A stretch of DNA of 64,000 nucleotides from Candidatus Poribacteria bacterium (GCA_022820835.1 JAJEET010000143.1:9414-73413), one strand, 5' to 3'. Shown: positions 4,177 to 53,454, numbered from the stretch's first letter. The notes: generated by a model from the sequence alone, not told the origin. A program made the numbers and translations.

Positions 4177-5281
4177 ATGATCATAAACGTTAAAAATCAG
4201 GCTGAAGCGATGCAAACCCGTCTTTTAGAACTCAGAGGTTATCTTTGACCTGGATGAAAAACGCAAAGAATTAGCAAAACTTGAAGAGGCGACTATTGAC
4301 CCAGAGTTTTGGAGTAACACACAGCGCGTCCAAGAGATCAATCAACGCATCTCTACCCTCCGCGACGAGGTTACGACCTACGAAGAACTCTACCTAAAAA
4401 TTGAGGACCTTCAGACGCTTGTTGAACTGGCAGACGAAGAAAACGACAGCAGTCTACAGACCGAAATCGTAGACGGATTAAACAACGTCGCAAGTCGTCT
4501 TGAGCAGATGGAACTCCGTCTGATGTTGAAAGGCGAATTCGATGGAAACAATGCTATCCTTAGTATCCACTCCGGCGCAGGCGGCGTTGACGCACAAGAT
4601 TGGGCAGGAATGTTGATGCGGATGTACCTACGATGGTGCGATGGGCGCGGCTACCAGACCGAAATCGTTGACATTACCGCTGGAGACGAAGCCGGGGTCA
4701 AAGGCACAACGATCCTTGTCACAGGCAACCTCGCTTACGGATACCTTCAGGCTGAGACCGGTGTACATAGACTCGTCCGTCTATCCCCTTACGATTTTAA
4801 CAAGCGTCGGCACACCTCTTTCGCCGCAGTTGATGTTACACCCGAAATCGATGACACCGTGGAAGTGGATATTCAACCCGAAGACCTACGCATTGATACT
4901 TACCGAGCAAGTGGTGCCGGTGGACAACACGTCAATGTCACAGACTCCGCAATCCGGATTACACATAAACCGACCGGGATTATTGTCCAGTGCCAGAATG
5001 AGCGTTCTCAGCATAAGAACCGCGATATCGCTATGAAGCTGCTACGCTCACGACTCCACGAGAAATATCGTGCTGAGCGGGAAGAGGAACTTGCCAAACA
5101 GCGGAGCGAACGTTTAGAGATTAACTTCGGCAGCCAAATCCGTTCCTATGTGTTGCACCCTTACCAACGTGTTAAAGATTTGCGAACGAGCGTCGAAACG
5201 GGGAACGTTAACGCTGTATTAGATGGCGCGTTGGACCCATTTATTGATAGCTACCTGAAAATGAAAGCGCAACAGAAGTAA
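4177..5281 (+). CDS. prfB: Peptide chain release factor 2, with a programmed +1 ribosomal frameshift at CTT TGA C (4243-4249)
   Basis: Frame 0 runs ATG 4177 to TGA 4246-4248 (25 codons), with the SD-like AGAGGT just upstream of CUU UGA C. The +1 frame continues through GGQ, RRHTSF and QCQNERSQHKN. prfB-lysS synteny matches E. coli. Confidence 0.9.
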
Positions 5282-10273: not shown

Positions 10274-12754
10274 ATGGACGCAATAAAAAATATACTGATT
10301 ATTACGAGCCTAATCATCGGGTTTGCAGCAACTCTCGTTACGGCTGAAGAACAAGCAGATGTCGTATTCGGACCTCAAGAGACGACGATAGAAGAACAGG
10401 CAGAAACGACTACCGAAACTCAGGCATCATCTGATACTGATGACGAGAAGTCAGATGAAACGAAGACAGCTGATACCACGGTGCCATCTGTCAACCCGAT
10501 GTTCGTTGTCAAAAAAATATCCTTTGAGGGTGTAAAAACTGTCTCCGAAGAAATGCTGCGTACGCTTATCCAGACACAGGTTGGCGATGAAGTGTCGCAA
10601 GAATTTCTTACCCAAGACTTGAAAAGCCTTTACAAAGACACGGGTTTCTTCTCCGAAGTTAACGTAGATACACAACCTGCCGAAGGCGGCGGACTCGAGA
10701 TTATCTATAAAGTCGTCGAAAACCCAAAAATCTCTGGTATTAATATTATCGGGAATGAAAACTTAAGCATTGGGAAATTGAAAAACGAGATTACACTCCG
10801 TCCAGATGAAATTTTTAGCGACCGACGACGATGGGAGAGCGAACGCGCCCTGAAAAAAGTCTATCACGACAAAGGATACTACCTTGTCGGTGTCCAAACA
10901 CACGTTGATGTGAGTGAGGACGAAACGCATACTGTTCAAGTCACCTTCGAGATCAACGAAGGTCCTCGGGTACGCATTACAGAGATCAATTTTATCGGTA
11001 ACCATCTGCTCACCGCCAACACATTGCGCAAGAAACTCAAAACCCGGACCGGTAAACCTTTCGACCAGATACTCTTTGAGGAAGAAGACCTTGCCTTCAA
11101 CCTTCGCAATTACTATCAAGACCGAGGGTTCGCACAGATTAAAGTCGTCGGATACGAAAAACGGTTCACTGAAGACAAAACAGGATTGATACTTGACATC
11201 ACCGTTGACGAAGGTCCCGAATATGTTATCGGAACTTATACACTTGAAGTTGAAGCCGGTGCCAAATCTCTGTTCTCCGAAAAGAAGATACGTGGGATGC
11301 TTGACCCGGCAGAGGGTGAAGTGTTCAACCGTGGAAACTTTGACGAATCTATCTCCAAATTACAGCAGGCTTATCTCGATAGAGGGTACCTGCTCTCTGA
11401 AGTCGTACCCGTCCCAACCTTTGATGAAAACGACGGATTGGTTAACATTACGCTACAGATCAACGAAGGCGATGTCATCGTCATCGGTAAGGTAATTATC
11501 AGCGGACTTGAGAAGACCATGGAGCATGTCGTCAAACGAGAATTGGACTTTTTGGACATCGAAACGGATGAATTGTTAGATGTCAAATCCTTGCGTAAGG
11601 CACGGCAACGGTTGTTCCAGATGGGATCTTTCATCCGTGCTGTCGATTTCGTGCCAAGCGACACCGACATAGAGAACCGAAAGGATTTGAGAGTCAATAT
11701 CGCGGAAACGCCGCGAACCGGAATGCTGAGCCTTGGCGGCGGATACGGAAGCGAAGGCGGCATCTTCGGGACTGCTGAAGTCGGACAGAACAATCTCCTC
11801 GGACGGGCATACAGAGTACACCTTAAAGGTGAAATAGGGACGCGTGACCATCACACAGCCGAAATTAGTTTTGGGACACCTTGGATACTTGGCACCCCCA
11901 CACGCCTCAACGCCCGGTTATATGATAACCGTCGTTTCCGGCGGCACTACGGAACCGTTGGCACACTCCTTAACCGAACGAATGCTAACTATCTATATGA
12001 TAGATATGTTTGGGGACGACGCGGCGCGTCTGTAACTCTCGGCAGACCCATCGCTTATGATATTGATCTCTCTGTCAGGTTCAGGAACGAACATGTCGAA
12101 GTACACAACCCAGATAAACCTTTTAATCGTTCCACCCGCAGTATCCTCTTTGCCGTTGGGCGGGATACTCGCGACTATCGCACCTCTTTATATGACCCAA
12201 CTGGCGGGGCATCGCATTCGCTCTCTTATGAATATTCCGGTGGTATCTTAGGGGCAGACAACCAATTCCAAAAATACTACGCTGACACCAGTTGGTTCTA
12301 CAGTGGTTGGTGGAACCATGTGATCGCATTTCACGCACGGGCAGGTTTCATGCAAAGTAAAAGTGCCGATCGAGAATTCCTATATTATGAACGGTTCTTC
12401 CTCGGTGGTGTAGACACTATCCGCGGCTACGAAAACTATGAAATCTACCCGGACCCTGATGAAACAGGACATTTCAACCCCTATGGTGGTGACAAAGTAC
12501 TCTTCGCGAATATTGAGTATCGTATTCCAGTGTCCCCGCAGCTCACTGCTGCACTGTTTTTCGATATAGGACAAGTATGGGATGAAAGTGTTAGAAACCC
12601 GTTTACGCAGATTAACCCGAAACGTGGACTCGGGGTCGAGGCGCGACTCAATATGTTCGGCATGCTGGCACGCTTAGGTTGGGGATACGGCTTGGACCGC
12701 ATCAGCGGTGAACCCGCTGGGAGATTCCACTTTACCATTGGACCAGGATTCTAA
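10274..12754 (+). CDS. bamA: Outer membrane protein assembly factor BamA (Omp85), with POTRA repeats and a C-terminal beta-barrel
   Basis: Signal peptide MDAIKNILIITSLIIGFAATLVTA, repeated POTRA-like units, C-terminal surface-antigen barrel ending in F. Followed by skp and lpxD as in other diderm bacteria. Confidence 0.85.
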   Translation: MDAIKNILIITSLIIGFAATLVTAEEQADVVFGPQETTIEEQAETTTETQASSDTDDEKSDETKTADTTVPSVNPMFVVKKISFEGVKTVSEEMLRTLIQTQVGDEVSQEFLTQDLKSLYKDTGFFSEVNVDTQPAEGGGLEIIYKVVENPKISGINIIGNENLSIGKLKNEITLRPDEIFSDRRRWESERALKKVYHDKGYYLVGVQTHVDVSEDETHTVQVTFEINEGPRVRITEINFIGNHLLTANTLRKKLKTRTGKPFDQILFEEEDLAFNLRNYYQDRGFAQIKVVGYEKRFTEDKTGLILDITVDEGPEYVIGTYTLEVEAGAKSLFSEKKIRGMLDPAEGEVFNRGNFDESISKLQQAYLDRGYLLSEVVPVPTFDENDGLVNITLQINEGDVIVIGKVIISGLEKTMEHVVKRELDFLDIETDELLDVKSLRKARQRLFQMGSFIRAVDFVPSDTDIENRKDLRVNIAETPRTGMLSLGGGYGSEGGIFGTAEVGQNNLLGRAYRVHLKGEIGTRDHHTAEISFGTPWILGTPTRLNARLYDNRRFRRHYGTVGTLLNRTNANYLYDRYVWGRRGASVTLGRPIAYDIDLSVRFRNEHVEVHNPDKPFNRSTRSILFAVGRDTRDYRTSLYDPTGGASHSLSYEYSGGILGADNQFQKYYADTSWFYSGWWNHVIAFHARAGFMQSKSADREFLYYERFFLGGVDTIRGYENYEIYPDPDETGHFNPYGGDKVLFANIEYRIPVSPQLTAALFFDIGQVWDESVRNPFTQINPKRGLGVEARLNMFGMLARLGWGYGLDRISGEPAGRFHFTIGPGF

Positions 12755-12934: not shown

Positions 12935-13516
12935 ATGAAATCACTTCGACGGGGTGCTTCTGAAGCACGCCTAACTCTATTACTAATTATTATTGCCGCT
13001 TTCAGTTTTAGTACAGGAAGTATCGGGCAGGAAGCTTTCAAAATCGGGGTCGTCAACACTGAAGAAGTCCTAAAAGGATCAGAAGCAGCGACAAAAGCGA
13101 CTGAAACGCTCAGAGCAGCAGGGGAACGACTGCAGAAACAATTGCAAGAGAAAGCAGACGCAGTCCGTACCATACAAGAGCAGAAAGCGAAAACTCAGCT
13201 GTTCGTTGAAGATGCGCAAACCGCAGATTTAGACAACCAGATCCTCCAACTTCAGCAGGAATACCAGCGGGATCGCGAAATCGGGCAGCAAGCACTCTTA
13301 GACAAAGAGAGAGAATTGCTTGAACCGATTTACAAATCCCTTGAAGAATTGATTATTAATGTCGGAAAAACCGAAAACTATGATATTATCCTCGAAAAAC
13401 GACTCATCACGCTCTATGTCAAAGAAGAATACGATTTGACGAAGAAGTTTATCGAATTGATGAACGAAAACGGCGAAAATGGCGAAAACGGCGAAAACGG
13501 CGAAAAATCCGAATAA
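12935..13516 (+). CDS. skp: Periplasmic chaperone Skp/OmpH-like, with a C-terminal GENGENGENGE repeat
   Basis: Signal peptide, a ~150-aa Q/E/K-rich coiled coil, and its position between bamA and lpxD. Confidence 0.65.
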   Translation: MKSLRRGASEARLTLLLIIIAAFSFSTGSIGQEAFKIGVVNTEEVLKGSEAATKATETLRAAGERLQKQLQEKADAVRTIQEQKAKTQLFVEDAQTADLDNQILQLQQEYQRDREIGQQALLDKERELLEPIYKSLEELIINVGKTENYDIILEKRLITLYVKEEYDLTKKFIELMNENGENGENGENGEKSE

Positions 13517-13586: not shown

Positions 13587-14633
13587 ATGAAACTCAAGGA
13601 AATTTGCGAACACCTTGATGGAGAACTCTCCGGAGATGGTGATATTGAAATTACAGGAGTTTCTGGTATTAAAGAAGCGCTGCCAACTCAGATTACTTTT
13701 GTTGCTAACCCGAAGTACATCGCTGCTTTAGCCACAACGCAAGCAGGCGCAATTATCATCGGACACGGTGTCCCTGGAAACGGGAAATCGACAATCCGTG
13801 TTAAAGACCCCTATTGGGCTTTTCTTCAAGTCTTACAGATGTTCTCAGTCGATAAGAACCGTCAAGCCCTTCCGGGAATCGATGAAACCGCAATTCTCGG
13901 CGAGAATGTGAAACTCGGAGAACGGGTCGCCATCCAAGCGTTTACCTATATCGCTGACAATGTCGAAATCGGGGACGACACCGTCATACAACCCTACGTC
14001 TATATCGGAGAAGGCACCACAATCGGTGCTGATGGACTCATCTATCCGCACGTTAGCATACGAGAAGAAATCACTATCGGGGATCGTGTGACGATCCATT
14101 GCGGTGCGGTTATCGGGAGTGACGGTTTCGGGTTCGCTCCAGTCAACGGACATCACCACAAAATTCCGCAGATCGGCACCGTCGTCATTGAGGACGATGT
14201 TGAGATCGGCGCGAACACCACTATTGACAGGGCCACACTCTCTGAGACGCGCATCAAACGCGGCACCAAATTGGATAACCTCGTCCAGATCGCACACAAT
14301 GTGGTCATCGGAGAAGATTGCTGCCTCGCTGCACAGGTCGGGATTGCAGGGAGTACGACACTCGGAGATCGCGTAAATATCGCAGGACACGGCGGCGCAG
14401 CCGGACATTTAACGCTCGGCGAGGACAGCGTCGTTTACGCGAAATCCGCTGTGACGAAGGATATGCCTCCAGGAAGCCGCCTCTCCGGATTCCCCGCACG
14501 TCCACATAAACAAGAACTCCGAATTCGCGCCGCGACTCGAAAACTACCAGAACTGCTCCCTGAATTCACAAAACTCCAAAAACGGGTGGCGGAACTCGAA
14601 GCAAAAATTCAAGAGCTGGAGGATGCAACATAA
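13587..14633 (+). CDS. lpxD: UDP-3-O-acylglucosamine N-acyltransferase LpxD
   Basis: LpxD N-terminal domain, left-handed beta-helix hexapeptide repeats and a C-terminal helical tail. Conserved position after skp. Confidence 0.85.
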   Translation: MKLKEICEHLDGELSGDGDIEITGVSGIKEALPTQITFVANPKYIAALATTQAGAIIIGHGVPGNGKSTIRVKDPYWAFLQVLQMFSVDKNRQALPGIDETAILGENVKLGERVAIQAFTYIADNVEIGDDTVIQPYVYIGEGTTIGADGLIYPHVSIREEITIGDRVTIHCGAVIGSDGFGFAPVNGHHHKIPQIGTVVIEDDVEIGANTTIDRATLSETRIKRGTKLDNLVQIAHNVVIGEDCCLAAQVGIAGSTTLGDRVNIAGHGGAAGHLTLGEDSVVYAKSAVTKDMPPGSRLSGFPARPHKQELRIRAATRKLPELLPEFTKLQKRVAELEAKIQELEDAT

Positions 14634-15570
14634 CGATACCAGACAACCGAAGGTATACCACTTCTTAGATTATGTGGCAGTTCTGCGACCTACGCTACTA
14701 TTTCCAGTCTGGACACTTCTGCTATTGGGATACCACCATGGACACGCTTCACGATCAGGATCAGAGATACACCAGCCACTCCATTTATGGGTAACCCTTT
14801 TCCTATACTCACTGTTGATGGGAGCCGTCTACATTGTCAATCAAATAGCAGATCGGGAGACAGATGCACACAATGACAAACTATATCTCGTCGCACAAGG
14901 GTATGTAAAACTTCGGATACTTAAATGGCAAGTAGGGGTGTTGGTGGCATTCTCAATTTTGTTGAGCCTGTTCGTCTTTCCGGAAAATCCAGCATATCTT
15001 ATTCTCATTTTACTCTCAACCTTGCTCGGATTCGCATACTCTGTACGGCCTGTCCGCCTCAAAGGGATACCAATTGCCGATTTATGTGCAAATGCTCTCG
15101 GATACGGGTGCATCGCCTTTCTTATCGGGTGGACGACGGTTACACCGATCGGTGTTGAAGCCGTATACCGCAGCCTTCCATATCTATTTTCTGTCGCCGC
15201 CGCTTTTGTAAATACAACGCTCCCTGACGTAAAAGGTGATAGCGTCGGCGGTGATAATACAACCGGTGTATGGCTCGGAAAAAGACGAGCATGTCTGTTA
15301 AGTTTAGTGCTGTTAATAGCCGCGATCGTTTCCGCTGTCCTGTTCAGAGATTGGATTGCCGGGGTAACAAGCGTCATCTGCTTACCAGTCTTTCTCTATA
15401 TGAACTTCTACCCAAAGCAAAATGTTATTATCTGGGCAACACGCATCGGGATCCTGACGCTAAGCCTCTGTGCTGGTGTGCTATTTCCTATCTACCTGCT
15501 CTGGTTTGGGGGTATCGTATTTGGCACCCGTTGGTATTATTCATTTCGTTTTGGCATCCGTTACCCGTAA
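14623..15570 (+). CDS. UbiA-family aromatic/isoprenoid prenyltransferase (membrane)
   Basis: Multi-TM protein with NQIADRETD (NxxxDxxxD) and a second Asp-rich motif (DVKGD). Overlaps the lpxD stop by 11 nt. Confidence 0.65.
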   Translation: MQHNDTRQPKVYHFLDYVAVLRPTLLFPVWTLLLLGYHHGHASRSGSEIHQPLHLWVTLFLYSLLMGAVYIVNQIADRETDAHNDKLYLVAQGYVKLRILKWQVGVLVAFSILLSLFVFPENPAYLILILLSTLLGFAYSVRPVRLKGIPIADLCANALGYGCIAFLIGWTTVTPIGVEAVYRSLPYLFSVAAAFVNTTLPDVKGDSVGGDNTTGVWLGKRRACLLSLVLLIAAIVSAVLFRDWIAGVTSVICLPVFLYMNFYPKQNVIIWATRIGILTLSLCAGVLFPIYLLWFGGIVFGTRWYYSFRFGIRYP

Positions 15571-15590
15571 CGCATTTATGAATTTGGAGG

Positions 15591-16454
15591 TTGAGGCAGA
15601 GACCCATGAAAACGCTGTTCGCATATCTTGAACTGGCGCGCCCCCTTAACGGAATCATCGCCTTTGTCTCCGCGTGGCTCGGTGGGATGTTCGCGAGCCA
15701 AGCTCGGATGGAAGAACTTATGAACATCCGATTGTTGCTGGTCTCAATCTCGGCATTCGCCTTGCTTTCTGCGGGAAACGCAATAAACGACTATTGCGAC
15801 TATGAGATTGATCGGATTAACCGTCCACGGAGACCCTTGCCATCGGGACGTATCCGCCGCAGAAATGCACTGATATTCGCTATCCTCCTTGTTGTCATCG
15901 GTGTCTGGGTAGGGACATTAATTAATAGGAACGCTACGGGGATCGCAATTCTCGTGTTTATCGCGCTTGCGAGTTACGCCTTCTGGCTAAAACGGACACC
16001 ATTTATCGGGAACTTAGTCGTAAGCGGATTAACCGGTTTAACATTTATCGCGGGAGGGGTCGCAATAGATTCGGTGCGCGGGACGTTGATTCCAGCAATC
16101 TTCGCATTCTTGTTTACGACAGCGAGAGAAATCGTCAAAGACCTCGAAGATACCGAAGGGGACCTGAAAAACAACGTAAAAACGCTTGCCATTCTCAACC
16201 CGCAACTCGCTGTCCAGGTGGCAATCGGTTTCATGGCATCGGTCGTCCTGTTTAGTCCGATCCCATACATATTCGGTTGGTATTCGTGGCACTATTTGCT
16301 GGTCGTTGTCTTCGGCGTTGATCTCGTGCTTATCGCTCTTGCGATACGTCTCTCACGAGATGCATCCAAAGAAAATTGCACTCGCATCCAATGTTGGATG
16401 AAGTGGGATATATTCGTTGGACTCGGTGCCATCTACCTCGGAACTTTTTTATGA
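15591..16454 (+). CDS. UbiA-family prenyltransferase, DGGGP-synthase-like
   Basis: NDYCDYEIDRINRPRRPLPSG and DLEDTEGD motifs. 287 aa and multi-TM. Confidence 0.7.
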   Translation: MRQRPMKTLFAYLELARPLNGIIAFVSAWLGGMFASQARMEELMNIRLLLVSISAFALLSAGNAINDYCDYEIDRINRPRRPLPSGRIRRRNALIFAILLVVIGVWVGTLINRNATGIAILVFIALASYAFWLKRTPFIGNLVVSGLTGLTFIAGGVAIDSVRGTLIPAIFAFLFTTAREIVKDLEDTEGDLKNNVKTLAILNPQLAVQVAIGFMASVVLFSPIPYIFGWYSWHYLLVVVFGVDLVLIALAIRLSRDASKENCTRIQCWMKWDIFVGLGAIYLGTFL

Positions 16455-17689
16455 TAAACTACGATGAAGTGATCGCTTTCTTAGAGAAAGAAAACATGGA
16501 CACAGATGTTGTTGCCCGTTTTAAACAGGCGTATCAAACCTTTTGTGAAACAGGCAAATGGCAGCCCGCGTACGAAGTGCGTGTCGCAGGGTGGCAACAA
16601 CTCGATGGCGTTATGTTGTTAGAACCGGAGCGGATGCTTGAAAACGATTACCAAGTCCATATCATAGCAACAAACGAGCGCAGTCTACGGGAACTACTAT
16701 TGGCGTTTCCGAGACGACAAATAGGACTGTTTCATCTCACAGAGAAATGGATAGAAGGCAGAATTCCGGATGTTATAGACGGCGATAGTGTTCGGACGAA
16801 CGCCGGTTCTTTTTATCGAGGGGTCAAACGCGGTAGCAGGACCAAAGCCGAGCAGCGAACCATCCTGAAACGAAAGGATGCTATTGTTTCATATTCCCGT
16901 AAACTTACCTCATTGAAAGGGAAAATTGAACACTCACAATTTATTGCCGAAGGATCGTTGGTTGTAGAGAGAGCAGTAGCAGATGGATTTCCGATTGAAT
17001 CGCTGCTTTATACGCCTGAATTTGTCGCGACGATTGATGGAAAGGCTTTTCTCAAACGAGCAGTGGAGGAAAATTTATCCGTTTACCAAGTGAGTACGGG
17101 GATTATGGGATCAATCACGACGACGCGACCTGTTCCCGCAATTATAGCATCAATTCACCTGAGTTATCCGAACTTCCTTTCAGCGTCTGGTCATCTCAAT
17201 TTCCACTTCGGTTCGAGGTGTCTGTTGCTCATTGCAGAAGACATCGGGAATCCCGATAATCTTGGGATGACGTTACGGACCGCGGACGCGGCGGGCGTTT
17301 CTGCTGTTTTATTAAGTGAAACAGCCGCACATCCGTTTCACAAAAACTGTATCCGTGCCTCACGGGGTGCCGTGGGGCGTCTGCCTTTATTTCAGACACC
17401 GAGCATCACTGAAGCGATTGCGGCACTTCGCTCTTCGGGTTGGTGTGTATTAGGTGCCACAGCCAGTGCCGAAAACGACATATTCACGGCTGAGATTTCA
17501 CACCCGATTGCTATTGTTGTGGGTAATGAGAATACCGGACTCTCCGCTGAGGCACGCGAAAGCTGCACAGCATTGGTACGTATCCCGATGGCATCAGGAC
17601 AATCGTCGCTCAACGTAGCTGTCGCTGCTGGTGTCCTACTCTATGCGTTTGTACAACGTACAGAATTTGACAAACCGCCTAAAATGTGA
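16451..17689 (+). CDS. TrmH/SpoU-family RNA 2'-O-methyltransferase with a ~170-aa N-terminal domain of unknown function
   Basis: C-terminal SPOUT domain (IVVGNENTGLS, SLNVAVAAGVLLYAF) preceded by a substrate-binding subdomain. Its ATGA start overlaps the upstream gene's stop. Confidence 0.7.
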   Translation: MINYDEVIAFLEKENMDTDVVARFKQAYQTFCETGKWQPAYEVRVAGWQQLDGVMLLEPERMLENDYQVHIIATNERSLRELLLAFPRRQIGLFHLTEKWIEGRIPDVIDGDSVRTNAGSFYRGVKRGSRTKAEQRTILKRKDAIVSYSRKLTSLKGKIEHSQFIAEGSLVVERAVADGFPIESLLYTPEFVATIDGKAFLKRAVEENLSVYQVSTGIMGSITTTRPVPAIIASIHLSYPNFLSASGHLNFHFGSRCLLLIAEDIGNPDNLGMTLRTADAAGVSAVLLSETAAHPFHKNCIRASRGAVGRLPLFQTPSITEAIAALRSSGWCVLGATASAENDIFTAEISHPIAIVVGNENTGLSAEARESCTALVRIPMASGQSSLNVAVAAGVLLYAFVQRTEFDKPPKM

Positions 17690-17766
17690 TACAATTCTAT
17701 GGGGAAGAAGTATAATTTGTATCCGATATCTGTTATCAATTATCGGTAAAAAGGGGAAAATCGCAT

Positions 17767-18513
17767 TTGAGATCAAATTGGGTTCTTAACCATTTCTACG
17801 AGACACTTAAAAAATATAATGCAGGCTATCTCGTCCTAATTGATCCTGAGCAGTGTGAGGTTGAAAAATGTGCCAAACTCGCGCGAGAAATTGAACGTTC
17901 AGGGGCAGACGCTATATTACTTGGAGGCAGCTTTTTAACGAACGATTTGGGACCGATTGCGAAAGCACTCAAGCAGGAAACACAACTCCCGATTGTCCTA
18001 TTCCCAGGAGATTCGATGCACCTTACACCTTATGCGGACGCTATACTCTATATCAGCCTCATCAGCGGACGCAACCCGAACTATCTCATTGGCGAACAGG
18101 TCAAAGCAGCCCCCTGGATACAACGACACGCCCTAAAACCAATCCCTACGGGTTATATGCTTATTGAAGGGGGGAGCAGGACCGCTGTTGAGTTCATGAG
18201 CGGAACGATCCCGATCCCTCGTGACAAGCCAGATATCGCCGGACCGCACGCATTAGCAGCGGAATATCTCGGCATGCAGATGGTGTATTTAGAGGCTGGG
18301 AGCGGCGCAGCACACCCCGTCCCTGACGAAATGATCACCACTGTCAAAAACCAAATTAGTATTCCTGTAATCGTTGGTGGAGGGATCCGTACCCCGAAAA
18401 TCGCAGCTGAAAAAGTGGCAGCTGGCGCAGATTTCGTCGTGACAGGCAACGTTCTTGAAGAAAATGGATCCCTTGAACTCATGCAGGATTTTGCCAATGC
18501 CGTCCACGGCTAA
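17767..18513 (+). CDS. (Hepta/geranylgeranyl)glyceryl phosphate synthase, PcrB/GGGPS family
   Basis: Motifs align along the full length with PcrB/GGGPS (LIDPE, ILLGGS, ILYISLISGRNP, YLEAGSG, GGGIRTP, ADFVVTGNVLEE). TTG start after a purine-rich SD-like stretch. Confidence 0.8.
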   Translation: MRSNWVLNHFYETLKKYNAGYLVLIDPEQCEVEKCAKLAREIERSGADAILLGGSFLTNDLGPIAKALKQETQLPIVLFPGDSMHLTPYADAILYISLISGRNPNYLIGEQVKAAPWIQRHALKPIPTGYMLIEGGSRTAVEFMSGTIPIPRDKPDIAGPHALAAEYLGMQMVYLEAGSGAAHPVPDEMITTVKNQISIPVIVGGGIRTPKIAAEKVAAGADFVVTGNVLEENGSLELMQDFANAVHG

Positions 18514-18577: not shown

Positions 18578-19447
18578 ATGGCTGAAGTTAAAGAGATACC
18601 TATTCAAACAGAAACAGAGGAAAAAACAGAAGCAGAAGCGTCCCCAGAGAACAAGACTACGGATAGTGAAAATGGGGGTGACAAGACACTCGTCACTCGG
18701 ATGCGAGAAATGGCGGAGTCGTCTCTTGACACGATAAAATCGGAAGTCAAAAAAGTAATTGAAGAACGAATCTCTACCGTTGAAGAGACCGCTACCAACG
18801 TTACTTCAGAGGCTAAAAAAGAGGTAGAAGTCATTATCCAAAGGGTTCGAGAACAATTTGAAGTAGAACGCGAAGAGCTCCTGCGTGAAGAGATAGAAAA
18901 AGAGGTTGCCGCTGCCGTAGAAAAAGTACATGATGAATATAAAGGCGAACGTGATCTCCTACTCCGCACGGCAGCAGAAGCCGAGAATACCAAAAAACGC
19001 CTACAAGCAGATTATCAACGACAACTCAAATTCGCCAACGAAGGTATTCTTGAAGGGATGCTCCCCGTATTAGATAGTTTGGAAGCCGCGATTAAAAGTG
19101 TAAACGAGCAGGTAGAAGCGAGTGACGCTCCGACTGAGTTCACAAGTTTCAATGAAGGTGTACAACTCGTCCATAAACAGTTGCTGGATGCTCTTAAAAT
19201 CCATGGCCTGGTGCCTATTGAAGCCGTCGGTGAGACATTTGACCCGAACCAGCACGAAGCGCTTCTGATTACGCCCTCAGATGACGTGTCGGAAGGGAAG
19301 GTAATTGAGGAATTCCGGCGCGGCTACATGCTGCACACACGTGTTTTACGCGCATCGCAAGTTGTTGTTTCACAAGGCCCCCCTGAAGTTGACGAAACCG
19401 ACACACCTGACGACAATAATGAAAACGCCACCGCTGATGAGGCATAG
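18578..19447 (+). CDS. grpE: Nucleotide exchange factor GrpE, with an extended acidic N-terminal coiled coil and acidic C-tail
   Basis: GrpE core ([14 protein letters not shown] ... FDPNQHEA ... [16 protein letters not shown]) located upstream of dnaJ. Confidence 0.8.
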
Positions 19448-19458
19448 GAAGGTATAAT

Positions 19459-20580
19459 ATGACGCAAAAACGCGATTACTATCAGGTATTGAACGTTGAT
19501 CGTGATGCCGACGAGAATGAGATTAAGAAGGCTTATCGCAAACTCGCTATCCAATTTCACCCCGATAAAAACCCTAACAATAAAGAAGCCGAAGACAAAT
19601 TCAAGGAAGCGACTGAGGCTTATGAAGTATTGCGAGACCCAGAGAAACGAAATACCTACGATAGATTCGGACACGCTGGACTTGAGGGAATGACGACCGA
19701 TTTCAGCGGGTTCGGTGTGAATCTTGATGACCTGTTTGGGGATGTTTTTGGCGACCTGTTAGGGGGGTTCGGCGGAAGGCAACGCGCCCCGAAACGGGGC
19801 CGTAGCCTGCAATACAACCTTGAAGTGACACTCGAAGATGTTATCCACGGTAAGCAGGTCTCGATCCAAGTACCACGCATCGAAACATGCTCAACATGCG
19901 GCGGCAGTGGCGCGAAACCCGGAACAGATGTCATAACCTGCCCGAGATGCCACGGAAGAGGACAAATCAGTCAATCACAGGGCTTTTTCACGATGGCGCG
20001 AACCTGCCCGAGATGCCATGGCGAAGGTGAAATCATACAAGACCCGTGCCCACCTTGTAATGGAAAAGGGGTCGTCCGAAATACACGCGAAATTAAACTC
20101 AATATTGATAAAGGGGTCGATTCCGGATTTAAGTATCAATTACGCGGTGAGGGTGAAGCAGGTCTCAACGGTGCTCCACCAGGTGATTTATACGTCGTTA
20201 TCAACGTCGCACCGCATGAGCGTTTCCATAGAGATGAAAACAATCTCATCACATCCGCCAAAATTTCGTTTATACAAGCGACACTCGGGGCAAAAATCAG
20301 CGTACAAGGGATTGATGGACATGAGGAGTTACATATTCCACCCGGCACACAATATGGCGCACAACTCCGTATACCTAACAAAGGTGTTCCTATTTACAAA
20401 CGCTCTAACATAGGAGACCTCATCGTCGAAATAGAAATCGAGACCCCGACGCACCTCAACAGTGAAGAACGAAGAAAGTTGGAAGAGTTTGCGGCTATGC
20501 GCGGTGAATCCGCGAACCAGGAACACGAAGGTTTCTGGGAAAAGTTACTCGGTCGTCATGAAGAGGATGACACCGAATAG
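19459..20580 (+). CDS. dnaJ: Chaperone DnaJ
   Basis: J domain with HPD, G/F region, four CxxCxGxG zinc-finger repeats and the C-terminal domains. Confidence 0.9.
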
Positions 20581-20627
20581 CGCTCCCTATCAGCGTCTAT
20601 CGTTCCGGGAATGGATAGATATGACAA

Positions 20628-21524
20628 ATGGATTGGGCAAGAATCACAGTAACCACCTCACACAACGCATCCGAGGCGGTCGCGAATTGTCTCTTTGAAC
20701 TGAATGCCACGGGTGTTGAATTCAGTTCGATTGATGACACCACAGTCAACCTTATCGCTTACTACCCGTTAGATGATCGTGTCGGCGCACGGATGCAGAA
20801 GCTCCGAGACTTCCTTGCGGAACTTCCAATGTGGGACATCCAACCCGGTCCCGCAACGATTAACTTAAAACACGTCAAATCTGAAAAGTGGGTGGAAGCT
20901 TGGAAAGCAGCGTTCCCACCGAAGCGCATCGGAAAACGGATGATTATCGTACCGACATGGCACGAGACATCTCGCGACGAAACCGACATCTTGATACAAC
21001 TTGACCCGGGAATGGCGTTCGGCACAGGATACCATCCAACGACACGGCTCTCCCTCGCGTTGTTAGAGGATACCGTCAAAACCGATGATCATGTCGCAGA
21101 TATCGGAACCGGTTCAGGGATTTTATCAATTGCCGCTGTTAAACTCGGCGCGAAACAGGTACACGCGATTGAAATTGATCCGACAGCGATTCCTATCGCC
21201 GCTGAGAACTTCCAAACAAACGGTGTAACATCGCAGGTGTTCTTGTCTCAAGGTGATGGACTCAAGCATACAGACGACACATACCATCTCATCATCGGTA
21301 ACATTTTAACGAAAACCATCCTTCCGATCATCCCGAATTGTCCGTCCCGACTACATCCGGGAGGTAGCGTCATCTTTTCTGGTATCTTGGAGACCGAACT
21401 TGAACAGGTTCAATCTGTGTTAGAGGAGAACAACTTTAAAGATCAGCAGACCATCAGCGAGGAAGAGGATAATATCACGTGGGTCGGTGTCAAGGCAAGG
21501 GCGAATTGTAGCACAAACTGTTAG
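20628..21524 (+). CDS. prmA: Ribosomal protein L11 methyltransferase
   Basis: PrmA N-terminal domain plus SAM-binding motif DIGTGSGILSIAA. Conserved dnaJ-prmA adjacency. Confidence 0.85.
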   Translation: MDWARITVTTSHNASEAVANCLFELNATGVEFSSIDDTTVNLIAYYPLDDRVGARMQKLRDFLAELPMWDIQPGPATINLKHVKSEKWVEAWKAAFPPKRIGKRMIIVPTWHETSRDETDILIQLDPGMAFGTGYHPTTRLSLALLEDTVKTDDHVADIGTGSGILSIAAVKLGAKQVHAIEIDPTAIPIAAENFQTNGVTSQVFLSQGDGLKHTDDTYHLIIGNILTKTILPIIPNCPSRLHPGGSVIFSGILETELEQVQSVLEENNFKDQQTISEEEDNITWVGVKARANCSTNC

Positions 21525-39862: not shown

Positions 39863-40026
39863 TTGTAAAACTGAAAAGTCAAAAAAGACGTGCTGCGCGT
39901 ATTATTCAAAGCGCGTAAGCCTAACCGGGTCCCACCCGTTACCGGGAAGGCGGGGGAGGCTGCACATACGAAAAAATGCCTCATTGCCCAAGCCGACCTG
40001 ACCGAACCGCAAGGAAGATTAAAAAT

Positions 40027-41004
40027 ATGAAAAAAGCGATTACTATTTTTATGATTATTGCCGTGACCTGCCTATTAACCTGGACGTTCGGGCAATCCGA
40101 TAGCCATGAGCAGCCCGAATCTGCTACCGACGAGAGCCAGGTAATTTTGGCGGAGTACAAATGGAACGGTGAACCGTATCATATCTCGCTGTCGGACTTG
40201 AACGCCGCAATAGCGGAGCTTCCTGTTTACCGTCAGCAGAACTATAAAACCCGAGCGGATAAAGCCGAATACCTCGAAGAACTAATTGAGGAACGGCTCA
40301 AAATACACCGTGCTATTGACGAAGGGTTTGATAAACTTCCCGAACATCTCAAGAAACTCGAAGATTACACGAATCAACTCATGGTCGAGAAACTCACTGA
40401 GATGGAAGTTGATGCGAAGGTGAGCTACAAAGATGAAGACCTTATGGCGCACTATCAGGCGAATCTTGCCGAGTACGTTGAGGATGAAAAGGTCCGCGCA
40501 ACATGTATCACGCTTGATGATGAAGACCTCGCTAATGAGACGCTCGATGCGATTATCGCAGGAAAAAATATCGCTGAAATGGCGAAGGAACTCTCAGAAG
40601 CAGGTAAACTCGCTAACGGTCCCGGCACCAACCAAGATGATCCAGGCAATACCTACTTCTTCACAAAGACCGCTTCACCACGCTGGGAGGAATTCATTGA
40701 GGCTGTCTTTCAACAAGAGGTCGGTGATATGACGGACATTGTCTTTGAAATTGATGTTAACGACGAAACCTTCTATCTCATCTTTCGTAAAGAGGAGCAC
40801 CAACCCGAACGTCAGAAAGAGTTTGAGGAAGTCAGGCGCGATATCGAAAGAACGGTTGAACGGGCAAAGAAACGCGAGCGCATCAATACATGGGTTGCTG
40901 AGATATCTGAAAACGGCAAGTTGAAAACCTATGCTGAAAATATCCCTGAGCCACCGCAGCCAGAAGAAGCAGAGCGTGAAGAATCAGAAGAATCAGAACA
41001 GTAA
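40027..41004 (+). CDS. SurA/PpiD-like periplasmic chaperone paralog with a degenerate parvulin region and acidic C-terminus
   Basis: Signal peptide, SurA_N-like helical segment (ILAEYKWNGEPYHISLSDL ...) and a parvulin-like block. Shares ~35-40% identity over the full length with the next gene. Confidence 0.5.
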   Translation: MKKAITIFMIIAVTCLLTWTFGQSDSHEQPESATDESQVILAEYKWNGEPYHISLSDLNAAIAELPVYRQQNYKTRADKAEYLEELIEERLKIHRAIDEGFDKLPEHLKKLEDYTNQLMVEKLTEMEVDAKVSYKDEDLMAHYQANLAEYVEDEKVRATCITLDDEDLANETLDAIIAGKNIAEMAKELSEAGKLANGPGTNQDDPGNTYFFTKTASPRWEEFIEAVFQQEVGDMTDIVFEIDVNDETFYLIFRKEEHQPERQKEFEEVRRDIERTVERAKKRERINTWVAEISENGKLKTYAENIPEPPQPEEAEREESEESEQ

Positions 41005-41074
41005 CCCATTTCCCGACCTGGAACCCGTACCCCTAACCATACTGTTAGGTCGAAAAAAGGAGTCAGAATTGAAA

Positions 41075-42052
41075 ATGTTCACAGGTATTATCCGATTTAT
41101 AGAAAAAGTAAATTCGGTTGTCCCTTTACTGTTAATCGGGGTTCTTGCGATGCACCCCGTCTTTTACAGCTGCAGTGATAAGGCAATCGGCGCAGATGGC
41201 ACAGTTATCGCTGAATATGAGTGGAACGGCAAACATCGCATCACACTTGAAGAGATGATGCAAGAAATCAGCGAACTCCCAGAATACAAGCAGCGTCAAT
41301 ATCAGGACAAAGAAGGTTTGGAAACCTACATGCTCCTTATGGCGGAGAGTCGTCTAATCCTCGCACTCGCTCGCGATGAGAAGCTCAACGAAGACCCCGA
41401 AATCCTCAAGAAGGTTCAAGACTACCTTCATGAGTTGATGGTCAAGAGAATTACCACTCAAGAAGTCGATGCTAAACTCAGTTTGTCCGAGGCCGACTAC
41501 ATGGCGTACTACGAAGCGCACAAAGAGGAGTACGTCCGTCCTGAGCAAGTTCGGCTTTTGTGTATTACATTGTTAAATAAGGAGCGCGCAGATGAAGTTT
41601 TCGTACAGATCAAAGCCGGTAAAGATATAGCGGAACTTGCACAGGAACTCTCTGATCGTGGTGAACTCGTCGGACCCGGTGCGAATCCTGCCTCCCCCGG
41701 CGATACCGACTACGTCAGCCGAGACACCTATCCGCCAGGAACCGAACCCTTCTTGGATGCAGCATTCGCCGCAGAGATCGGACAGACCCACGACGGCGTG
41801 ATTGAAGTCGAAGTCCAAGGACAGAAATACTATATGATGTTCCGTAAGGACGAGGCGCGTGATGCTTATCAAAAACCGTTGGAGGATGAGGATGTCCGTA
41901 GGAACGTTGAACGGAAAGCAGAACGTGAAAGACGCGATGCACTCATGCAGGAGTGGATCCGCCAACTCCGTGAACGCGCCGAGGTCAAAACGTTTATTGA
42001 CAGGATCCCAGAAGCACAGCCCGAAGAAACGGAAACGGAACCTGAAGAATAA
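41075..42052 (+). CDS. SurA/PpiD-like periplasmic chaperone paralog, second tandem copy
   Basis: Same architecture as 40027-41004 (VIAEYEWNGKHRITLEEM ... parvulin-like ... acidic tail). SD AAAAGGAG lies upstream. Confidence 0.5.
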   Translation: MFTGIIRFIEKVNSVVPLLLIGVLAMHPVFYSCSDKAIGADGTVIAEYEWNGKHRITLEEMMQEISELPEYKQRQYQDKEGLETYMLLMAESRLILALARDEKLNEDPEILKKVQDYLHELMVKRITTQEVDAKLSLSEADYMAYYEAHKEEYVRPEQVRLLCITLLNKERADEVFVQIKAGKDIAELAQELSDRGELVGPGANPASPGDTDYVSRDTYPPGTEPFLDAAFAAEIGQTHDGVIEVEVQGQKYYMMFRKDEARDAYQKPLEDEDVRRNVERKAERERRDALMQEWIRQLRERAEVKTFIDRIPEAQPEETETEPEE

Positions 42053-42056
42053 AAAC

Positions 42057-42135
42057 ACTTACGCAACCCCACTTCGGCGGGGTTTGTAACCCCGCATGGG
42101 TAATCTCAACTGCAAGCGGGGTTTGATGAAGTTTA
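42057..42135. repeat. Intergenic repeat: one full hairpin copy (CACTTACGCAACCCCACTTCGGCGGGGTTTGTAACCCCGC) plus an adjacent half copy (GCAAGCGGGGTTTGA)
   Basis: Same family as the copies at 25221 and 34721. Confidence 0.65.
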
Positions 42136-42312
42136 AATAAATCGGTAATCGTTAGGGATCGCGAGCACAGCGTGCTTCTACGGTAAGAGGTTATTGTATT
42201 ACCGAATTAAATTCTTAAATTTCATTAACCCCGCCTATAGTGAAAACTTAGACCACAAATGTGCGCGCTTTCTTTGACCGCGTATCACCTATACAGTAGG
42301 AGTTTCACACAA

Positions 42313-43605
42313 ATGGTTTACAAGAAAAGTATTCATCTCATTCTAATCGTCTTGTTTGTCGGCATTGGACTCTCAGACCTCCATGCTCGCACTTTTGATA
42401 GGATCATCGCTTATGTCAACGACGACGTTGTAACCAAACGAGAACTTGATGTTTTAGTAAACCAGCGTGCGATGGAACTTCAACAGGTCTATCGTTTCAG
42501 TGAACGCGAGGCACTTAACGAGGCAGAACGACAACGAAGCGAACTCTTGGATAGACTTATCCGGCAAATGTTACTCTTGGAAGCAGCGTTAACCTTAAAA
42601 ATTACCGTCAGTGATGCTGAGGTAGAACAGTACGTCAAAGATTTTAAAGACAGATACAAAATTGAAACCGACGAAGAATTTCAGAAACAGTTGAATCAAG
42701 AAGGGATGACACTCGTCGCATTTCGTGAGCAGTCGGAACGTAATCTCAAAACCGAGAAACTTGTTATGGGAAGAATCGTTCCGAGATTGCAGATTCGAGA
42801 TAAAGAAATCCAAGAATTTTATGAAGAAAATCGGGATCAATTATCAACGAAAGTTGACAAAGTAAATCTACGACATATCTTCGTTGCTTTTAAACCGAAC
42901 GAAGCGGATCTTGATGCCGCTAACGAGAACGTTGCAAAAGCACGTAACGAAATCGAGACCGGCATCGCGAAATTTGAAACAGTGGCAAAGCGTTACGATA
43001 CCTCCCAACAGGCTGGTGCTCTGATAACACCGACAACTGAAGAACTCAATCAGTTTCCAGAAATATTCAAAAATTCACTGACGAATTTGGAAATAGGCAC
43101 TATCAGTGAACCGATTGTCGGAGATAAAGGCCTCTACATCTTTACAGTTGAAGAGCGAACCGATGCCACAACCGCATTTCGCTATTTTATTGTTCCGATA
43201 ATAGTCAGTCCGGAGGCGGTACAAGAGGCACGTGAAAACGCAAACGAAATCTACGCACAGTTGGAAGCCGGTGCAGATTTTAATAAACTGGCACTGACAC
43301 GCTCTGACGATCATGAAACGCGAGAAAACGGGGGCGACCTCGGTGTCAGATTCTTATCCGAACTCAATCCTAAAACGCGAGCGATCATAGAACCGTTGGA
43401 AGCCGGTGCCTACAGCCAACCCTATGAAACCGAGTTAGGTCTCCATATCTTCAAAATTGATCAGCGAAACAGTCCTGAACTCACCGAAATGGAAAAAGCA
43501 CAAATTACCTCACTCCTACGCCAACAGCGATTTCAAGAAGAGTGGGACACATACACCAATAAACTACTTGAAAACGCATACATTAAAATCACTTTGAAAG
43601 AATAA
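42313..43605 (+). CDS. surA: Periplasmic chaperone/peptidyl-prolyl isomerase SurA
   Basis: Signal peptide, SurA N-terminal domain and two parvulin domains (LRHIFV ..., ... GGDLG ... LHIFKI). Encoded immediately upstream of lptD. Confidence 0.75.
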   Translation: MVYKKSIHLILIVLFVGIGLSDLHARTFDRIIAYVNDDVVTKRELDVLVNQRAMELQQVYRFSEREALNEAERQRSELLDRLIRQMLLLEAALTLKITVSDAEVEQYVKDFKDRYKIETDEEFQKQLNQEGMTLVAFREQSERNLKTEKLVMGRIVPRLQIRDKEIQEFYEENRDQLSTKVDKVNLRHIFVAFKPNEADLDAANENVAKARNEIETGIAKFETVAKRYDTSQQAGALITPTTEELNQFPEIFKNSLTNLEIGTISEPIVGDKGLYIFTVEERTDATTAFRYFIVPIIVSPEAVQEARENANEIYAQLEAGADFNKLALTRSDDHETRENGGDLGVRFLSELNPKTRAIIEPLEAGAYSQPYETELGLHIFKIDQRNSPELTEMEKAQITSLLRQQRFQEEWDTYTNKLLENAYIKITLKE

Positions 43606-43612
43606 TAAACCT

Positions 43613-49811: not shown

Positions 49812-51377
49812 ATGAACACCAACCTCACCGACATCGAAAATAGGCTCTGGAGTGCTGCCGATGAACTCAGAGCCAATTCACGTCTTAAGGCATCCGAATA
49901 CTCAACACCTGTCCTCGGTCTTATCTTTTTACGATACGCCGATCACAAATTTACACAGGCTGAACAAGAAATCAGCAGCGAAGCCGATCCAAACAGCCGT
50001 AGGCATCCTGACCTGAGAATGGAATGTCAAGCCCGCGGTGTACTTTATCTGACAGAGCATTCACGTTTTCAACACCTACTAAATCTGCCAGAGGGTGAAA
50101 ACATCGGACAAGCCATCACAGACGCTATGAAGGCAATAGAAGCAGAAAATTCACAAATAGAGGGCGTCCTCCCCAAAACTTACAATCGACTGGAAAAGAA
50201 TACACTCCTCGAACTCCTCCGTATCATGGAACAGATCCCTATGGACATTGAAGGAGATGCTTTTGGGAAGGTTTATGAGTACTTCCTCGGCAATTTCGCC
50301 ATGAGCGAGGGGCAACGCGGCGGTGAATTCTTCACGCCAACCTCGCTCGTCAAACTCATCGTCGAGATTATCCAACCCTTCCACGGGCGCATCCTGGATC
50401 CTGCCTGCGGATCCGGTGGAATGTTTGTCCAGAGTGCAGCGTTCATTAGCAACCACAAGAAAAATGGCACCCCCGGAGACATCAGCATTTACGGCGTGGA
50501 ACGCGTCGTTGAAACGATCAGGTTATGTAAGATGAATCTTGCCGTCCATGCGCTTGAAGGCGATATCAAACAGGCAAATAGTTACTATGAGGATCCGCAC
50601 AACTGCCTCAACAGGTTTGATTTCGTCATGGCAAATCCACCTTTTAACGTCGATCGCGTAGACAGAGAACGTATCAAAGATGATCCGCGATTCCCGTTCG
50701 GCATGCCACGCGTAGACAATGCGAATTACCTTTGGATACAACTGTTCTATAGTTCGCTCTCCGAATCTGGGCGTGCAGGTTTTGTCATGGCGAACTCTGC
50801 CGCCGATGCCCGCGCCTCCGAACTCGACATCCGTCGCCAAATTATCGAATCCGGGGCAGTTGATGTCATCGTCAGCATCGCCTCAAATTTCTTTTATACT
50901 GTTACCTTACCCTGTACGCTCTGGTTTTTCGATAAGTCCAAACGGAACAGCGATCGACACGATAAAGTCTTGTTCATTGATGCACGCCATCTCTATCAAC
51001 AAGTGAGCCGCGCACATCGGGAATTCACACCCGGACAACTCGAATTCCTTGCAAACATCGTCAGACTTTATCGCGGAGAAGCACCAGAAAATCAACACGA
51101 CAGCGCAGATTTCCTCGCCTCAAAATTCCCTGATACAGTATACATTGATGTCCCTGGACTTTGTAAGGTCGCTACGATTGCCGAGATTGAGACACAAGGT
51201 TGGAGTCTGAACCCCGGACGCTATGTCGGCGTTGACGAACAGACAACCGATGATTTCGACTTTGTTGAACGATTCACGCAGCTCAACGAGGAGTTAGCAG
51301 TACTAAATGCCAAAGCACACCAACTCGAAGAACGCATCGCCGAAAATGTTGCCAAGATTTTGGAGGATACGGTATAA
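49812..51377 (+). CDS. hsdM: Type I restriction-modification system, methyltransferase subunit HsdM
   Basis: HsdM N-terminal domain and N6-adenine MTase motifs ([15 protein letters not shown]). Confidence 0.9.
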
Positions 51378-51395
51378 TGTTGATGGAGGCAAAAA

Positions 51396-51725
51396 ATGAG
51401 TGAAGAGATTAAAATTGAGGAGAGTTCTGGGAATGTGTTTTTGGATATCGGTTTCTCTGAAGAAGAGGCGGAATATCATCAGTTAAGGGTAGACCTTGCA
51501 TTTGCAATCCACCATCTTCTTGAAGAACAAAAACTAACACCAACAAAAGCAAAAGCCCGCTTTGGACTTGATCCATCTGATGTGTCCCGACTGAAGAAAA
51601 TGGACTTTACAGATTTTACCATAGAGCAGTTGTTAGTAGTTCTGAAGCGGCTGAACCGCAAGGTTGAAATTCATATTAAGCCTTCGGACAAAACAGCCAA
51701 CTACCAGCGAGTTTTTGTTACGTAA
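51396..51725 (+). CDS. HigA-like XRE antitoxin, second copy (orphan, no adjacent higB)
   Basis: First 21 aa identical to the 48097 copy and ~65% identity overall. Preceded by the last ~20 nt of higB only. Confidence 0.65.
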   Translation: MSEEIKIEESSGNVFLDIGFSEEEAEYHQLRVDLAFAIHHLLEEQKLTPTKAKARFGLDPSDVSRLKKMDFTDFTIEQLLVVLKRLNRKVEIHIKPSDKTANYQRVFVT

Positions 51726-51726
51726 G

Positions 51727-53447: not shown

Positions 53448-53454
53448 TTTTTAA

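Follow-up and report, generated by a model that had tools for sequence, protein, structure and literature searches.

Archaeal-type ether-lipid genes behind bamA-skp-lpxD in Candidatus Poribacteria: a candidate eroded ancestral cluster

We analysed a 64,000-nucleotide stretch of Candidatus Poribacteria DNA (GCA_022820835.1, JAJEET010000143.1:9414-73413; hereafter the window), in which genes resembling those of archaeal ether-lipid synthesis follow bamA, skp and lpxD. The segment from the lpxD start to the stop of the geranylgeranylglyceryl phosphate synthase gene (GGGPS, a PcrB-family gene) occupies exactly positions 13587-18513 on the + strand, and belongs to a single co-directional gene run that extends over about 2.3-21.5 kb of that strand. 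The run opens with lnt, prfB, lysS, a gene for a lolE-like FtsX permease, the gene of its ABC ATPase, ilvE, bamA, skp and lpxD, and continues with two UbiA-family prenyltransferase genes (UbiA-1 and UbiA-2), a SpoU-type methyltransferase gene, GGGPS, grpE, dnaJ and prmA. The original prediction, which was made from the sequence alone and had bamA-skp-lpxD followed by two UbiA genes, a TrmH-like methyltransferase gene and GGGPS, was correct in gene content and position.

All genes of this part of the run are on the + strand and were assigned by family models. The bamA product (10274-12754; 826 aa by gene call) carries POTRA and Omp85 domains and scored 413 bits against TIGR03303 (cutoff 297). 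It is followed by the skp/OmpH chaperone gene (12935-13516; PF03938, 80 bits), whose C-terminal GENGENGENGE repeat is encoded by four tandem 9-nt units, AACGGCGAA, at 13468-13510, the allele of locus L002 being 3 aa shorter. The lpxD gene for UDP-3-O-acylglucosamine N-acyltransferase (13587-14633) scored 375 bits with TIGR01853 (cutoff 243) and 395 with NF002060 (cutoff 207). UbiA-1 (14623-15570) encodes an intramembrane prenyltransferase that matched PF01040 at 77 bits and fell under every NCBIfam cutoff, and UbiA-2 (15606-16454; PF01040, 151 bits) encodes a prenyltransferase resembling digeranylgeranylglyceryl phosphate synthase (DGGGPS). The next gene encodes a SpoU/RlmB-like RNA 2'-O-methyltransferase (16451-17689; PF00588, 124 bits, and also PF22435); GGGPS lies at 17767-18513, and grpE, dnaJ and prmA, recognised by Pfam and NCBIfam matches, lie at 18578-21524.

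The junctions were read from the sequence. The proposed overlap of UbiA-1 with the lpxD stop is present and measures 11 nt. An ATGA overlap had also been proposed between the two UbiA genes, but they are 35 nt apart, and the ATGA joins UbiA-2 to the methyltransferase gene. The gaps from the methyltransferase gene to GGGPS and from GGGPS to grpE are 77 and 64 nt. It had further been noted that fabZ-lpxA-lpxB do not follow lpxD; indeed, the UbiA genes stand there instead, and Pfam scans and gene calls found none of fabZ, lpxA and lpxB among window open reading frames (ORFs) of at least 200 aa. Rfam gave no match in the window.

To place the locus in its phylum, we scanned for GGGPS with one genome per GTDB species, which yielded 80 species loci. 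All 80 were from Candidatus Poribacteria, with 72-96% GGGPS identity to the window, and they included the Aplysina single-cell genome WGA-3G. In addition, an identical GGGPS protein was found on two metagenome scaffolds (132 kb and 48 kb) with the same gene order. By these matches the window DNA is that of Candidatus Poribacteria, a symbiotic bacterium. Poribacteria form a separate candidate phylum that is not within the FCB (Fibrobacteres-Chlorobi-Bacteroidetes) group.

The PcrB homolog, which has a conserved TTG start and matched PF01884 at 162 bits, passed both the equivalog model TIGR01769 (221.5 bits, cutoff 161.55) and NF003198 (286.8 bits, cutoff 247), the subfamily model that covers GGGPS and heptaprenylglyceryl-phosphate synthase (HepGPS). 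Its best PDB match was the group II enzyme of Methanothermobacter thermautotrophicus (4mm1; E 5.5e-56, nearly full length), followed by that of Flavobacterium johnsoniae (4jej; E 1.8e-52, residues 20-233). Group I was far more distant (A. fulgidus 2f6u, E 1.2e-6), and the Bacillus and Staphylococcus HepGPS structures reached only 1e-6 to 7e-5 (4nae, 1e-6; 3vzx, 6e-5). A HepGPS identity was rejected on these values and on a score of 31 bits against NF003197 (cutoff 260). The protein shares the PcrB/TIM-barrel superfamily with B. subtilis PcrB, a HepGPS, but the scores place it outside the HepGPS family. On these comparisons the PcrB homolog belongs to the group II GGGPS enzymes, being closer to them than to group I or HepGPS, so that the GGGPS/PcrB assignment stood, with no clustering among the HepGPS on scores. 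The phosphate-binding and catalytic motifs of GGGPS (LIDP, YLEAGSGA and VGGGIR) can be aligned with those of 4mm1, and none of them varies among 14 poribacterial sequences. An exhaustive HMMER search with the protein returned 289 clusters (50% identity) at E <=1e-30. While 4mm1 and 4jej are its closest solved relatives, the closest clusters that are presumably non-poribacterial (46-54% identity) are bacterial and include metagenome-assembled genomes of Anaerolineae and Ignavibacteriaceae, at about 48-54%. The window GGGPS thus sits with bacterial group II sequences and does not look like a recent archaeal import.

UbiA-2 is the second gene on which the interpretation depends. Its residues 2-279 align with M. 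jannaschii DGGGPS (6m31; E 6.6e-39), and the next solved match, chlorophyll synthase, reached only 2e-7. Both Asp-rich motifs of UbiA-2, NAINDYCDYEID and KDLEDTEGD, align with those of 6m31. The top NCBIfam models were NF009523 (UbiA-family prenyltransferase), then the DGGGPS models NF009521 and NF009522. Since all three scores are under the cutoffs, we call the protein DGGGPS-like and not a certified ortholog; by alignment it is DGGGPS-like over its full length. An identity as heme-O synthase or quinone UbiA was rejected, the scores being 64 for cyoE_ctaB TIGR01473 (cutoff 210) and 58 for ubiA_proteo (cutoff 275).

UbiA-1 is different. As a single sequence it had no PDB match, and BLASTP between UbiA-1 and UbiA-2 was not significant. 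A word-seeded homolog search returned 142 proteins at E <=1e-5, and all the named ones were poribacterial. In the profile of 25 homologs, N73, D77, D81, D202 and D206 were invariant, and the best matches of this family profile were AfUbiA (4tq3, 3.5e-11) and the chlorophyll synthase ChlG (1.6e-10), not 6m31. The AlphaFold (AF2) model (pLDDT 89) has the standard UbiA fold; Foldseek found it equally close to AfUbiA and DGGGPS and did not separate the two. A weak match to decaprenyl-phosphate phosphoribosyltransferase was also observed. We considered UbiA-1 as a second DGGGPS and rejected it, as its profile did not match 6m31, nothing was significant against UbiA-2, and the fold alone is common; MenA was rejected at 27 bits with TIGR00751 (cutoff 102). 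As judged from these comparisons, UbiA-1 is a separate subfamily with exclusively poribacterial named members, and is not DGGGPS, MenA or heme-O synthase. Of the two DGGGPS-like enzymes in the original prediction, one therefore stands, UbiA-2 with its full-length match to 6m31, and the other falls, as UbiA-1 has no sequence similarity to DGGGPS; neither gene is an ortholog of MenA or heme-O synthase, both being far below the cutoffs of those models.

To compare the arrangement of the locus, we searched the 80 species loci with the window proteins by tblastn; arrangement counts were taken from the 73 loci that have at least 6 kb upstream of GGGPS. We found lpxD, UbiA-2 and GGGPS together in 61 of the 73 loci, and the order lpxD, UbiA-2, methyltransferase, GGGPS in 51; an intact UbiA-1 in addition to these four was present in six. 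The methyltransferase gene is absent from two loci (L034 and L046), where UbiA-2 directly adjoins GGGPS, and in two others a geranylgeranyl reductase gene (GGR) lies immediately before GGGPS. Without lpxD, UbiA-2 and the methyltransferase gene are kept in 2/73 and the methyltransferase gene alone in 1/73, while unrelated genes (ruvB, queA, maf, restriction or HNH genes) lie upstream of GGGPS in the remaining 9/73. Insertions of 1.5-4.6 kb were observed within the lpxD-UbiA-2-methyltransferase-GGGPS cluster of L012, L062, L056, L057 and L063. Downstream, GGGPS, grpE, dnaJ and prmA remain together in all loci whose sequence extends far enough.

The two lipid genes are well preserved across these loci: GGGPS was found in all 80 and UbiA-2 is intact in 68. 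Median identities to the window were 89% for ilvE, 88% for lpxD, 86% for GGGPS and 82% for UbiA-2, and 67% and 64% for skp and the methyltransferase. The identities of GGGPS and UbiA-2 are high, close to that of lpxD and well above those of skp and the methyltransferase, which indicates that both lipid genes are strongly constrained, a pattern of purifying conservation. UbiA-1 is intact in about 7 of 64 related species with lpxD and UbiA-2, and the window holds one of the few intact copies. About 18 loci retain recognisable UbiA-1 fragments between lpxD and UbiA-2, which points to repeated, independent decay, and in most relatives UbiA-1 is, as read from these alignments, a pseudogene or deleted. 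The loss of UbiA-1 is not tied to that of UbiA-2 or GGGPS.

Distant UbiA-1 homologs (46-58% identity) led to three deep-branching loci, L083, L084 and L086, in which the cluster is larger. In these, bamA, skp, lpxD, a gene for a NodB-type deacetylase and UbiA-1 are followed by genes for a pyruvyl transferase and a 552-576-aa protein, and then by UbiA-2, ferredoxin/GGR and GGGPS. The extra genes for the NodB-type polysaccharide deacetylase, the polysaccharide pyruvyl transferase and the 552-576-aa protein (L084:7200-11733, L086:6758-11234) are absent from the window. The 552-576-aa protein bears a signal peptide, shows PHP-like metal-phosphoesterase motifs on inspection by eye, and gave no Pfam match. 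Within the eight-gene stretch of L084 that runs from lpxD to GGGPS, neighbouring genes either overlap or are separated by no more than 21 nt, and a 2x[4Fe-4S] domain is fused to the reductase.

The company that UbiA-1 keeps in the deep lineages raises the possibility, tentative and on balance unlikely, that it is the last gene left in the window of a separate polyprenyl-phosphate or glycan pathway (deacetylase, pyruvyl transferase, secreted phosphoesterase) attached to lpxD, and is not part of the ether-lipid pathway. There UbiA-1 sits among those very genes, between lpxD and UbiA-2. Its lack of detectable pairwise similarity to UbiA-2, its loss independent of UbiA-2 and GGGPS, and the weak phosphoribosyltransferase match would agree with such an origin, but its best profile and fold matches are to AfUbiA, DGGGPS and chlorophyll synthase and not to the phosphoribosyltransferase.

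GGR saturates archaeal lipid chains, and a GGR gene (PF22578) lies between UbiA-2 and GGGPS in L052, L060, L083, L084 and L086. Its position between a DGGGPS-like gene and GGGPS provides the strongest contextual evidence for an archaeal-type lipid module. In the lineage of the window the cluster lacks GGR, and the methyltransferase gene occupies its place; L052 and L060 are intermediates that hold both. The methyltransferase is RlmB-like, but scored 117 bits with TIGR00186, below the cutoff of 160, and its N-terminal extension of about 170 aa had no convincing family match. The gene is absent from L034, L046 and the deep lineages, and probably represents an unrelated insertion in the place that GGR has in other lineages. 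No GGR from the close clade of the window was seen among the top 120 GGR homologs, a weak negative, and this weak evidence suggests that the clade may have lost GGR. Judged by gene content, the deep-branching Poribacteria show the ancestral form of the cluster and the window is an eroded version of it.

The GGR genes that adjoin GGGPS have a further peculiarity. Three of them contain an in-frame TGA (L060:6530-7717, L052:6541-7722 and L083:10234-11427) at the position of a TGC (Cys) codon in L084 and L086, within the motif EIGxPVR[C/TGA]AEG. About 17 nt 3' of the TGA, and in the TGA versions only, there is a hairpin GCACAG-N3-5-CUGUGC with GG in the loop, and many poribacterial GGR database entries are 292-346-aa pieces that begin just past the TGA point. 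The folding energies of the hairpin were no better than those of shuffled controls, and no Rfam model of the selenocysteine insertion sequence (SECIS) matched at the TGA. The TGA-containing GGR may be a selenocysteine-containing enzyme.

A strong promoter-like sequence lies at the 3' end of the methyltransferase gene and in the gap before GGGPS. The predicted sigma-70-like promoter TTGACA-17-TGaTACAAT (17667-17695, +) is the best such site in 9-22 kb, with 11 of 12 consensus positions plus the TG extension; it overlaps the last methyltransferase codons and is located 72 nt ahead of the TTG with which GGGPS starts. A search of both strands found only four sites of such strength in the 64 kb, every one of them on the + strand. 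Three (2265, 17667 and 22751) closely precede genes of that strand, and from the fourth (54714) it is about 360 nt to the nearest ORF downstream on the + strand. Across the phylum, an element of the form AATTTGACAAA...TG(G/A)TA(A/C)AAT was found <=131 nt from the GGGPS start in 74 of 80 species (76 of 85 loci). It is kept despite diverged flanking intergenic DNA and also where the upstream genes are unrelated, and is absent where GGR directly abuts GGGPS. Between promoter and GGGPS, inspection by eye for a CIRCE-type heat-shock operator revealed only lineage-specific inverted repeats and none that was conserved.

From the consensus and the conservation of this promoter-like sequence, GGGPS probably has its own transcription start, which would make coupling to lpxD unnecessary, and heads a unit GGGPS-grpE-dnaJ-prmA, with lpxD-UbiA-1-UbiA-2-methyltransferase probably forming a separate unit upstream. 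Because the conserved promoter travels with grpE-dnaJ-prmA even where lpxD is missing, co-transcription of GGGPS with lpxD is doubtful here. The predicted co-transcription of the whole segment thus fits the close or overlapping genes from lpxD to the methyltransferase gene, but not GGGPS, which has a conserved promoter of its own.

The original prediction went further and proposed that ether or isoprenoid lipids are integrated into envelope biogenesis. In this explanation the isoprenoid glycerol ethers would be an anchor or component made together with lipid A and the outer membrane and co-expressed with bamA-skp-lpxD, rather than bulk phospholipid. The linkage to lpxD is phylum-wide, down to 46-58% identity of the cluster proteins; the compact eight-gene run of L084 includes a deacetylase, a pyruvyl transferase and a signal-peptide-bearing phosphoesterase-like protein, all functions of envelope type; and lpxD, UbiA-1, UbiA-2 and the methyltransferase gene of the window overlap or are 35 nt apart. 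However, the window has none of these accessory genes of envelope type, and GGGPS in this lineage has its own conserved promoter, which it keeps together with its grpE-dnaJ-prmA neighbours in nine species where neither lpxD nor UbiA-2 lies within 8 kb. The 19-kb run at about 2.3-21.5 kb consists throughout of tightly spaced, unrelated housekeeping genes, so spacing alone means little; the same logic would 'couple' GGGPS to heat-shock chaperones. Outside the phylum, lpxD, bamA and UbiA genes are all missing from the neighbourhood of GGGPS in four of the closest loci; GGR adjoins GGGPS in one of them and a SIS-domain gene in two.

Taken together, the biochemical part of the original proposal, GGGPS with one DGGGPS-like enzyme, has good support from homology and gene context. 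The conserved linkage to lpxD holds, and integration into envelope biogenesis is set back by the separate GGGPS promoter and by the missing lpxD link outside Poribacteria; we consider such coupling unlikely. We infer that the adjacency to lpxD is inherited synteny, with functional coupling as a minority possibility. A bolder version, which we hold to be very improbable, is that Poribacteria ancestrally co-transcribe lpxD with a complete module of DGGGPS, ferredoxin/GGR (possibly with selenocysteine) and GGGPS plus envelope-modifying enzymes, that the diethers would be an integral product of outer-membrane or envelope biogenesis, and that the window would carry a reduced but active form. If true, it would mean a natural mixed envelope and a dedicated role for ether lipids.

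Beside these comparisons, a SIS_2 (sugar-phosphate isomerase-like) gene was observed directly after GGGPS in two unrelated non-poribacterial contigs (L090:5289-5876 and L091:8764-9339). This pairing may deserve a look as to the source of glycerol-1-phosphate (G1P) in bacteria without G1P dehydrogenase (G1PDH).

We hold, with a probability of about 0.6, that an ancestral poribacterial cluster for isoprenoid glycerol-ether lipids of archaeal type survives in the window in eroded form. In the pathway predicted from the enzyme families, group II GGGPS would transfer geranylgeranyl from geranylgeranyl diphosphate (GGPP) to the hydroxyl of glycerol phosphate, and UbiA-2 would add a second geranylgeranyl chain to give digeranylgeranylglyceryl phosphate (DGGGP). 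Ordinary bacterial CdsA and PgsA could then convert this product to polar lipids, a conversion shown for the Cloacimonetes enzymes in E. coli. With no GGR in the cluster, any product would keep its double bonds if no reductase gene exists at another site. UbiA-1 would be an extra prenyltransferase, lost by most relatives, and the place beside bamA-skp-lpxD would reflect synteny inherited phylum-wide. The substrates, the products and their stereochemistry are predicted. A precedent exists: the co-localised GGGPS and DGGGPS of Ca. Cloacimonetes, which have no native G1P dehydrogenase, yielded archaeal-type lipids in E. coli (PMC7852524).

Several points weigh against this interpretation. UbiA-2 is below the cutoffs of its best models (NF009521, 215 against 296; NF009522, 179 against 353; NF009523, 227 against 269). 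GGPP synthase, G1P dehydrogenase, CDP-archaeol synthase and GGR were not among the ORFs of at least 200 aa in the 64-kb window. In the table of a 2016 survey (PMC5059525), the enzymes given for Poribacteria include GpsA and GlpK, and G1PDH is not among them. In addition, the loss of GGR and the erosion of UbiA-1 in the lineage could indicate a changing or shrinking role.

These points also bear on a different explanation, in which the genes are kept for a role other than diether synthesis: a Bacillus-like mono-ether, another acceptor for UbiA-2, salvage and remodelling of the lipids of co-resident archaea, or a pathway that is being lost in host-associated Poribacteria. The disappearance of GGR from the cluster and its absence from the close clade among the top 120 homologs, the repeated pseudogenisation of UbiA-1, the missing G1PDH record (PMC5059525) and the UbiA-2 scores under the DGGGPS equivalog cutoffs would all agree with it, and a catabolic role for bacteria without G1PDH has been raised by Coleman et al. 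(PMC6431249). But GGGPS intact in 80 species and UbiA-2 in 68, both highly conserved, together with the conserved promoter and the intact catalytic motifs of the two enzymes, do not look like genes being discarded, and GGR adjoining GGGPS in the deep lineages and, independently, in an Anaerolineae-like contig points to biosynthesis. We therefore judge a non-diether role quite unlikely and retain the eroded ether-lipid cluster as the preferred interpretation.

Other features of the window lie outside the ether-lipid cluster. The prfB gene (4177-5281) contains a programmed +1 frameshift, CTT TGA C at 4243-4249, preceded by AGAGG; a first frame of 23 codons leads into the main frame, and for this reason the gene appears among the listed ORFs as a 257-aa piece only; CTT TGA C is the classical release factor 2 frameshift site and is ordinary. 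After mfd there are four consecutive genes for PpiC/SurA-type peptidyl-prolyl isomerases (39976-47653), one of which encodes 1346 aa; its only rotamase domain lies near residue 400, and another 900 or so residues match no family. A type I restriction-modification system lies at 49812-60357 (hsdM, 49812-51377; hsdS, 53455-54717; hsdR, 57196-60357), and two other genes interrupt it, one for a DUF2806 protein (52155-53447) and one for an AAA_21/AbiEii-like ATPase (55106-56305). The GC content is 0.41 at 52-56 kb and about 0.47 elsewhere in the window, and this dip at the restriction-modification genes suggests that they are probably an acquired defence island.

Ether-lipid genes of archaeal type in bacteria bear on the 'lipid divide' between the domains. 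The present locus adds a separate phylum, in which the gene pair is conserved in nearly every species examined and is accompanied by a reductase behind lpxD in the deep lineages. It could serve as a second independent natural system in which to ask whether mixed membranes exist, where the lipids go in a diderm cell, and how glycerol phosphate stereochemistry is set without G1P dehydrogenase. The stepwise erosion, with GGR lost, UbiA-1 decaying and a promoter gained, offers a natural series from which the essential genes might be sorted out. Poribacteria are abundant in sponges that host Thaumarchaeota also, and the isoprenoid ether lipids of sponge surveys might not all be archaeal.

In the literature, group II GGGPS and DGGGPS homologs are established for bacteria of the FCB group (PMC7852524, PMC6431249), and Villanueva et al. 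(PMC7852524, 2021) write that within bacteria their co-localisation "seems to be restricted to Ca. Cloacimonetes". We found no mention of Poribacteria in the text or supplements of that paper that were searched. A June 2026 preprint on sponge-symbiont ether lipids covers the elb, agps, ger, mss and tes routes only, and our searches pairing Poribacteria with GGGPS, ether or archaeal lipids, or geranylgeranyl reductase returned no report of the cluster. Within the searchable literature, it is thus an unreported instance of the known bacterial GGGPS and DGGGPS phenomenon, in a new phylum and a distinctive gene context.

Compared with the canonical bamA-skp-lpxD-fabZ-lpxA-lpxB cluster, the window has bamA, skp and lpxD contiguous and in the same order, whereas in every poribacterial locus examined prenyltransferase genes, and not fabZ-lpxA-lpxB, follow lpxD. 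The closest known system is that of Cloacimonetes and the FCB group: in both cases the bacteria are diderm, a group II GGGPS gene is clustered with a DGGGPS-like UbiA gene, no G1P dehydrogenase is evident, and the predicted product DGGGP would lead to a mixed membrane. Unlike Cloacimonetes, Poribacteria lie outside the FCB group, and their cluster follows bamA-skp-lpxD and includes a second, unrelated UbiA gene. They differ further in the ferredoxin/GGR of the deep lineages and, in the lineage of the window, in a cluster whose parts are now separated by a methyltransferase gene and a newly gained promoter.

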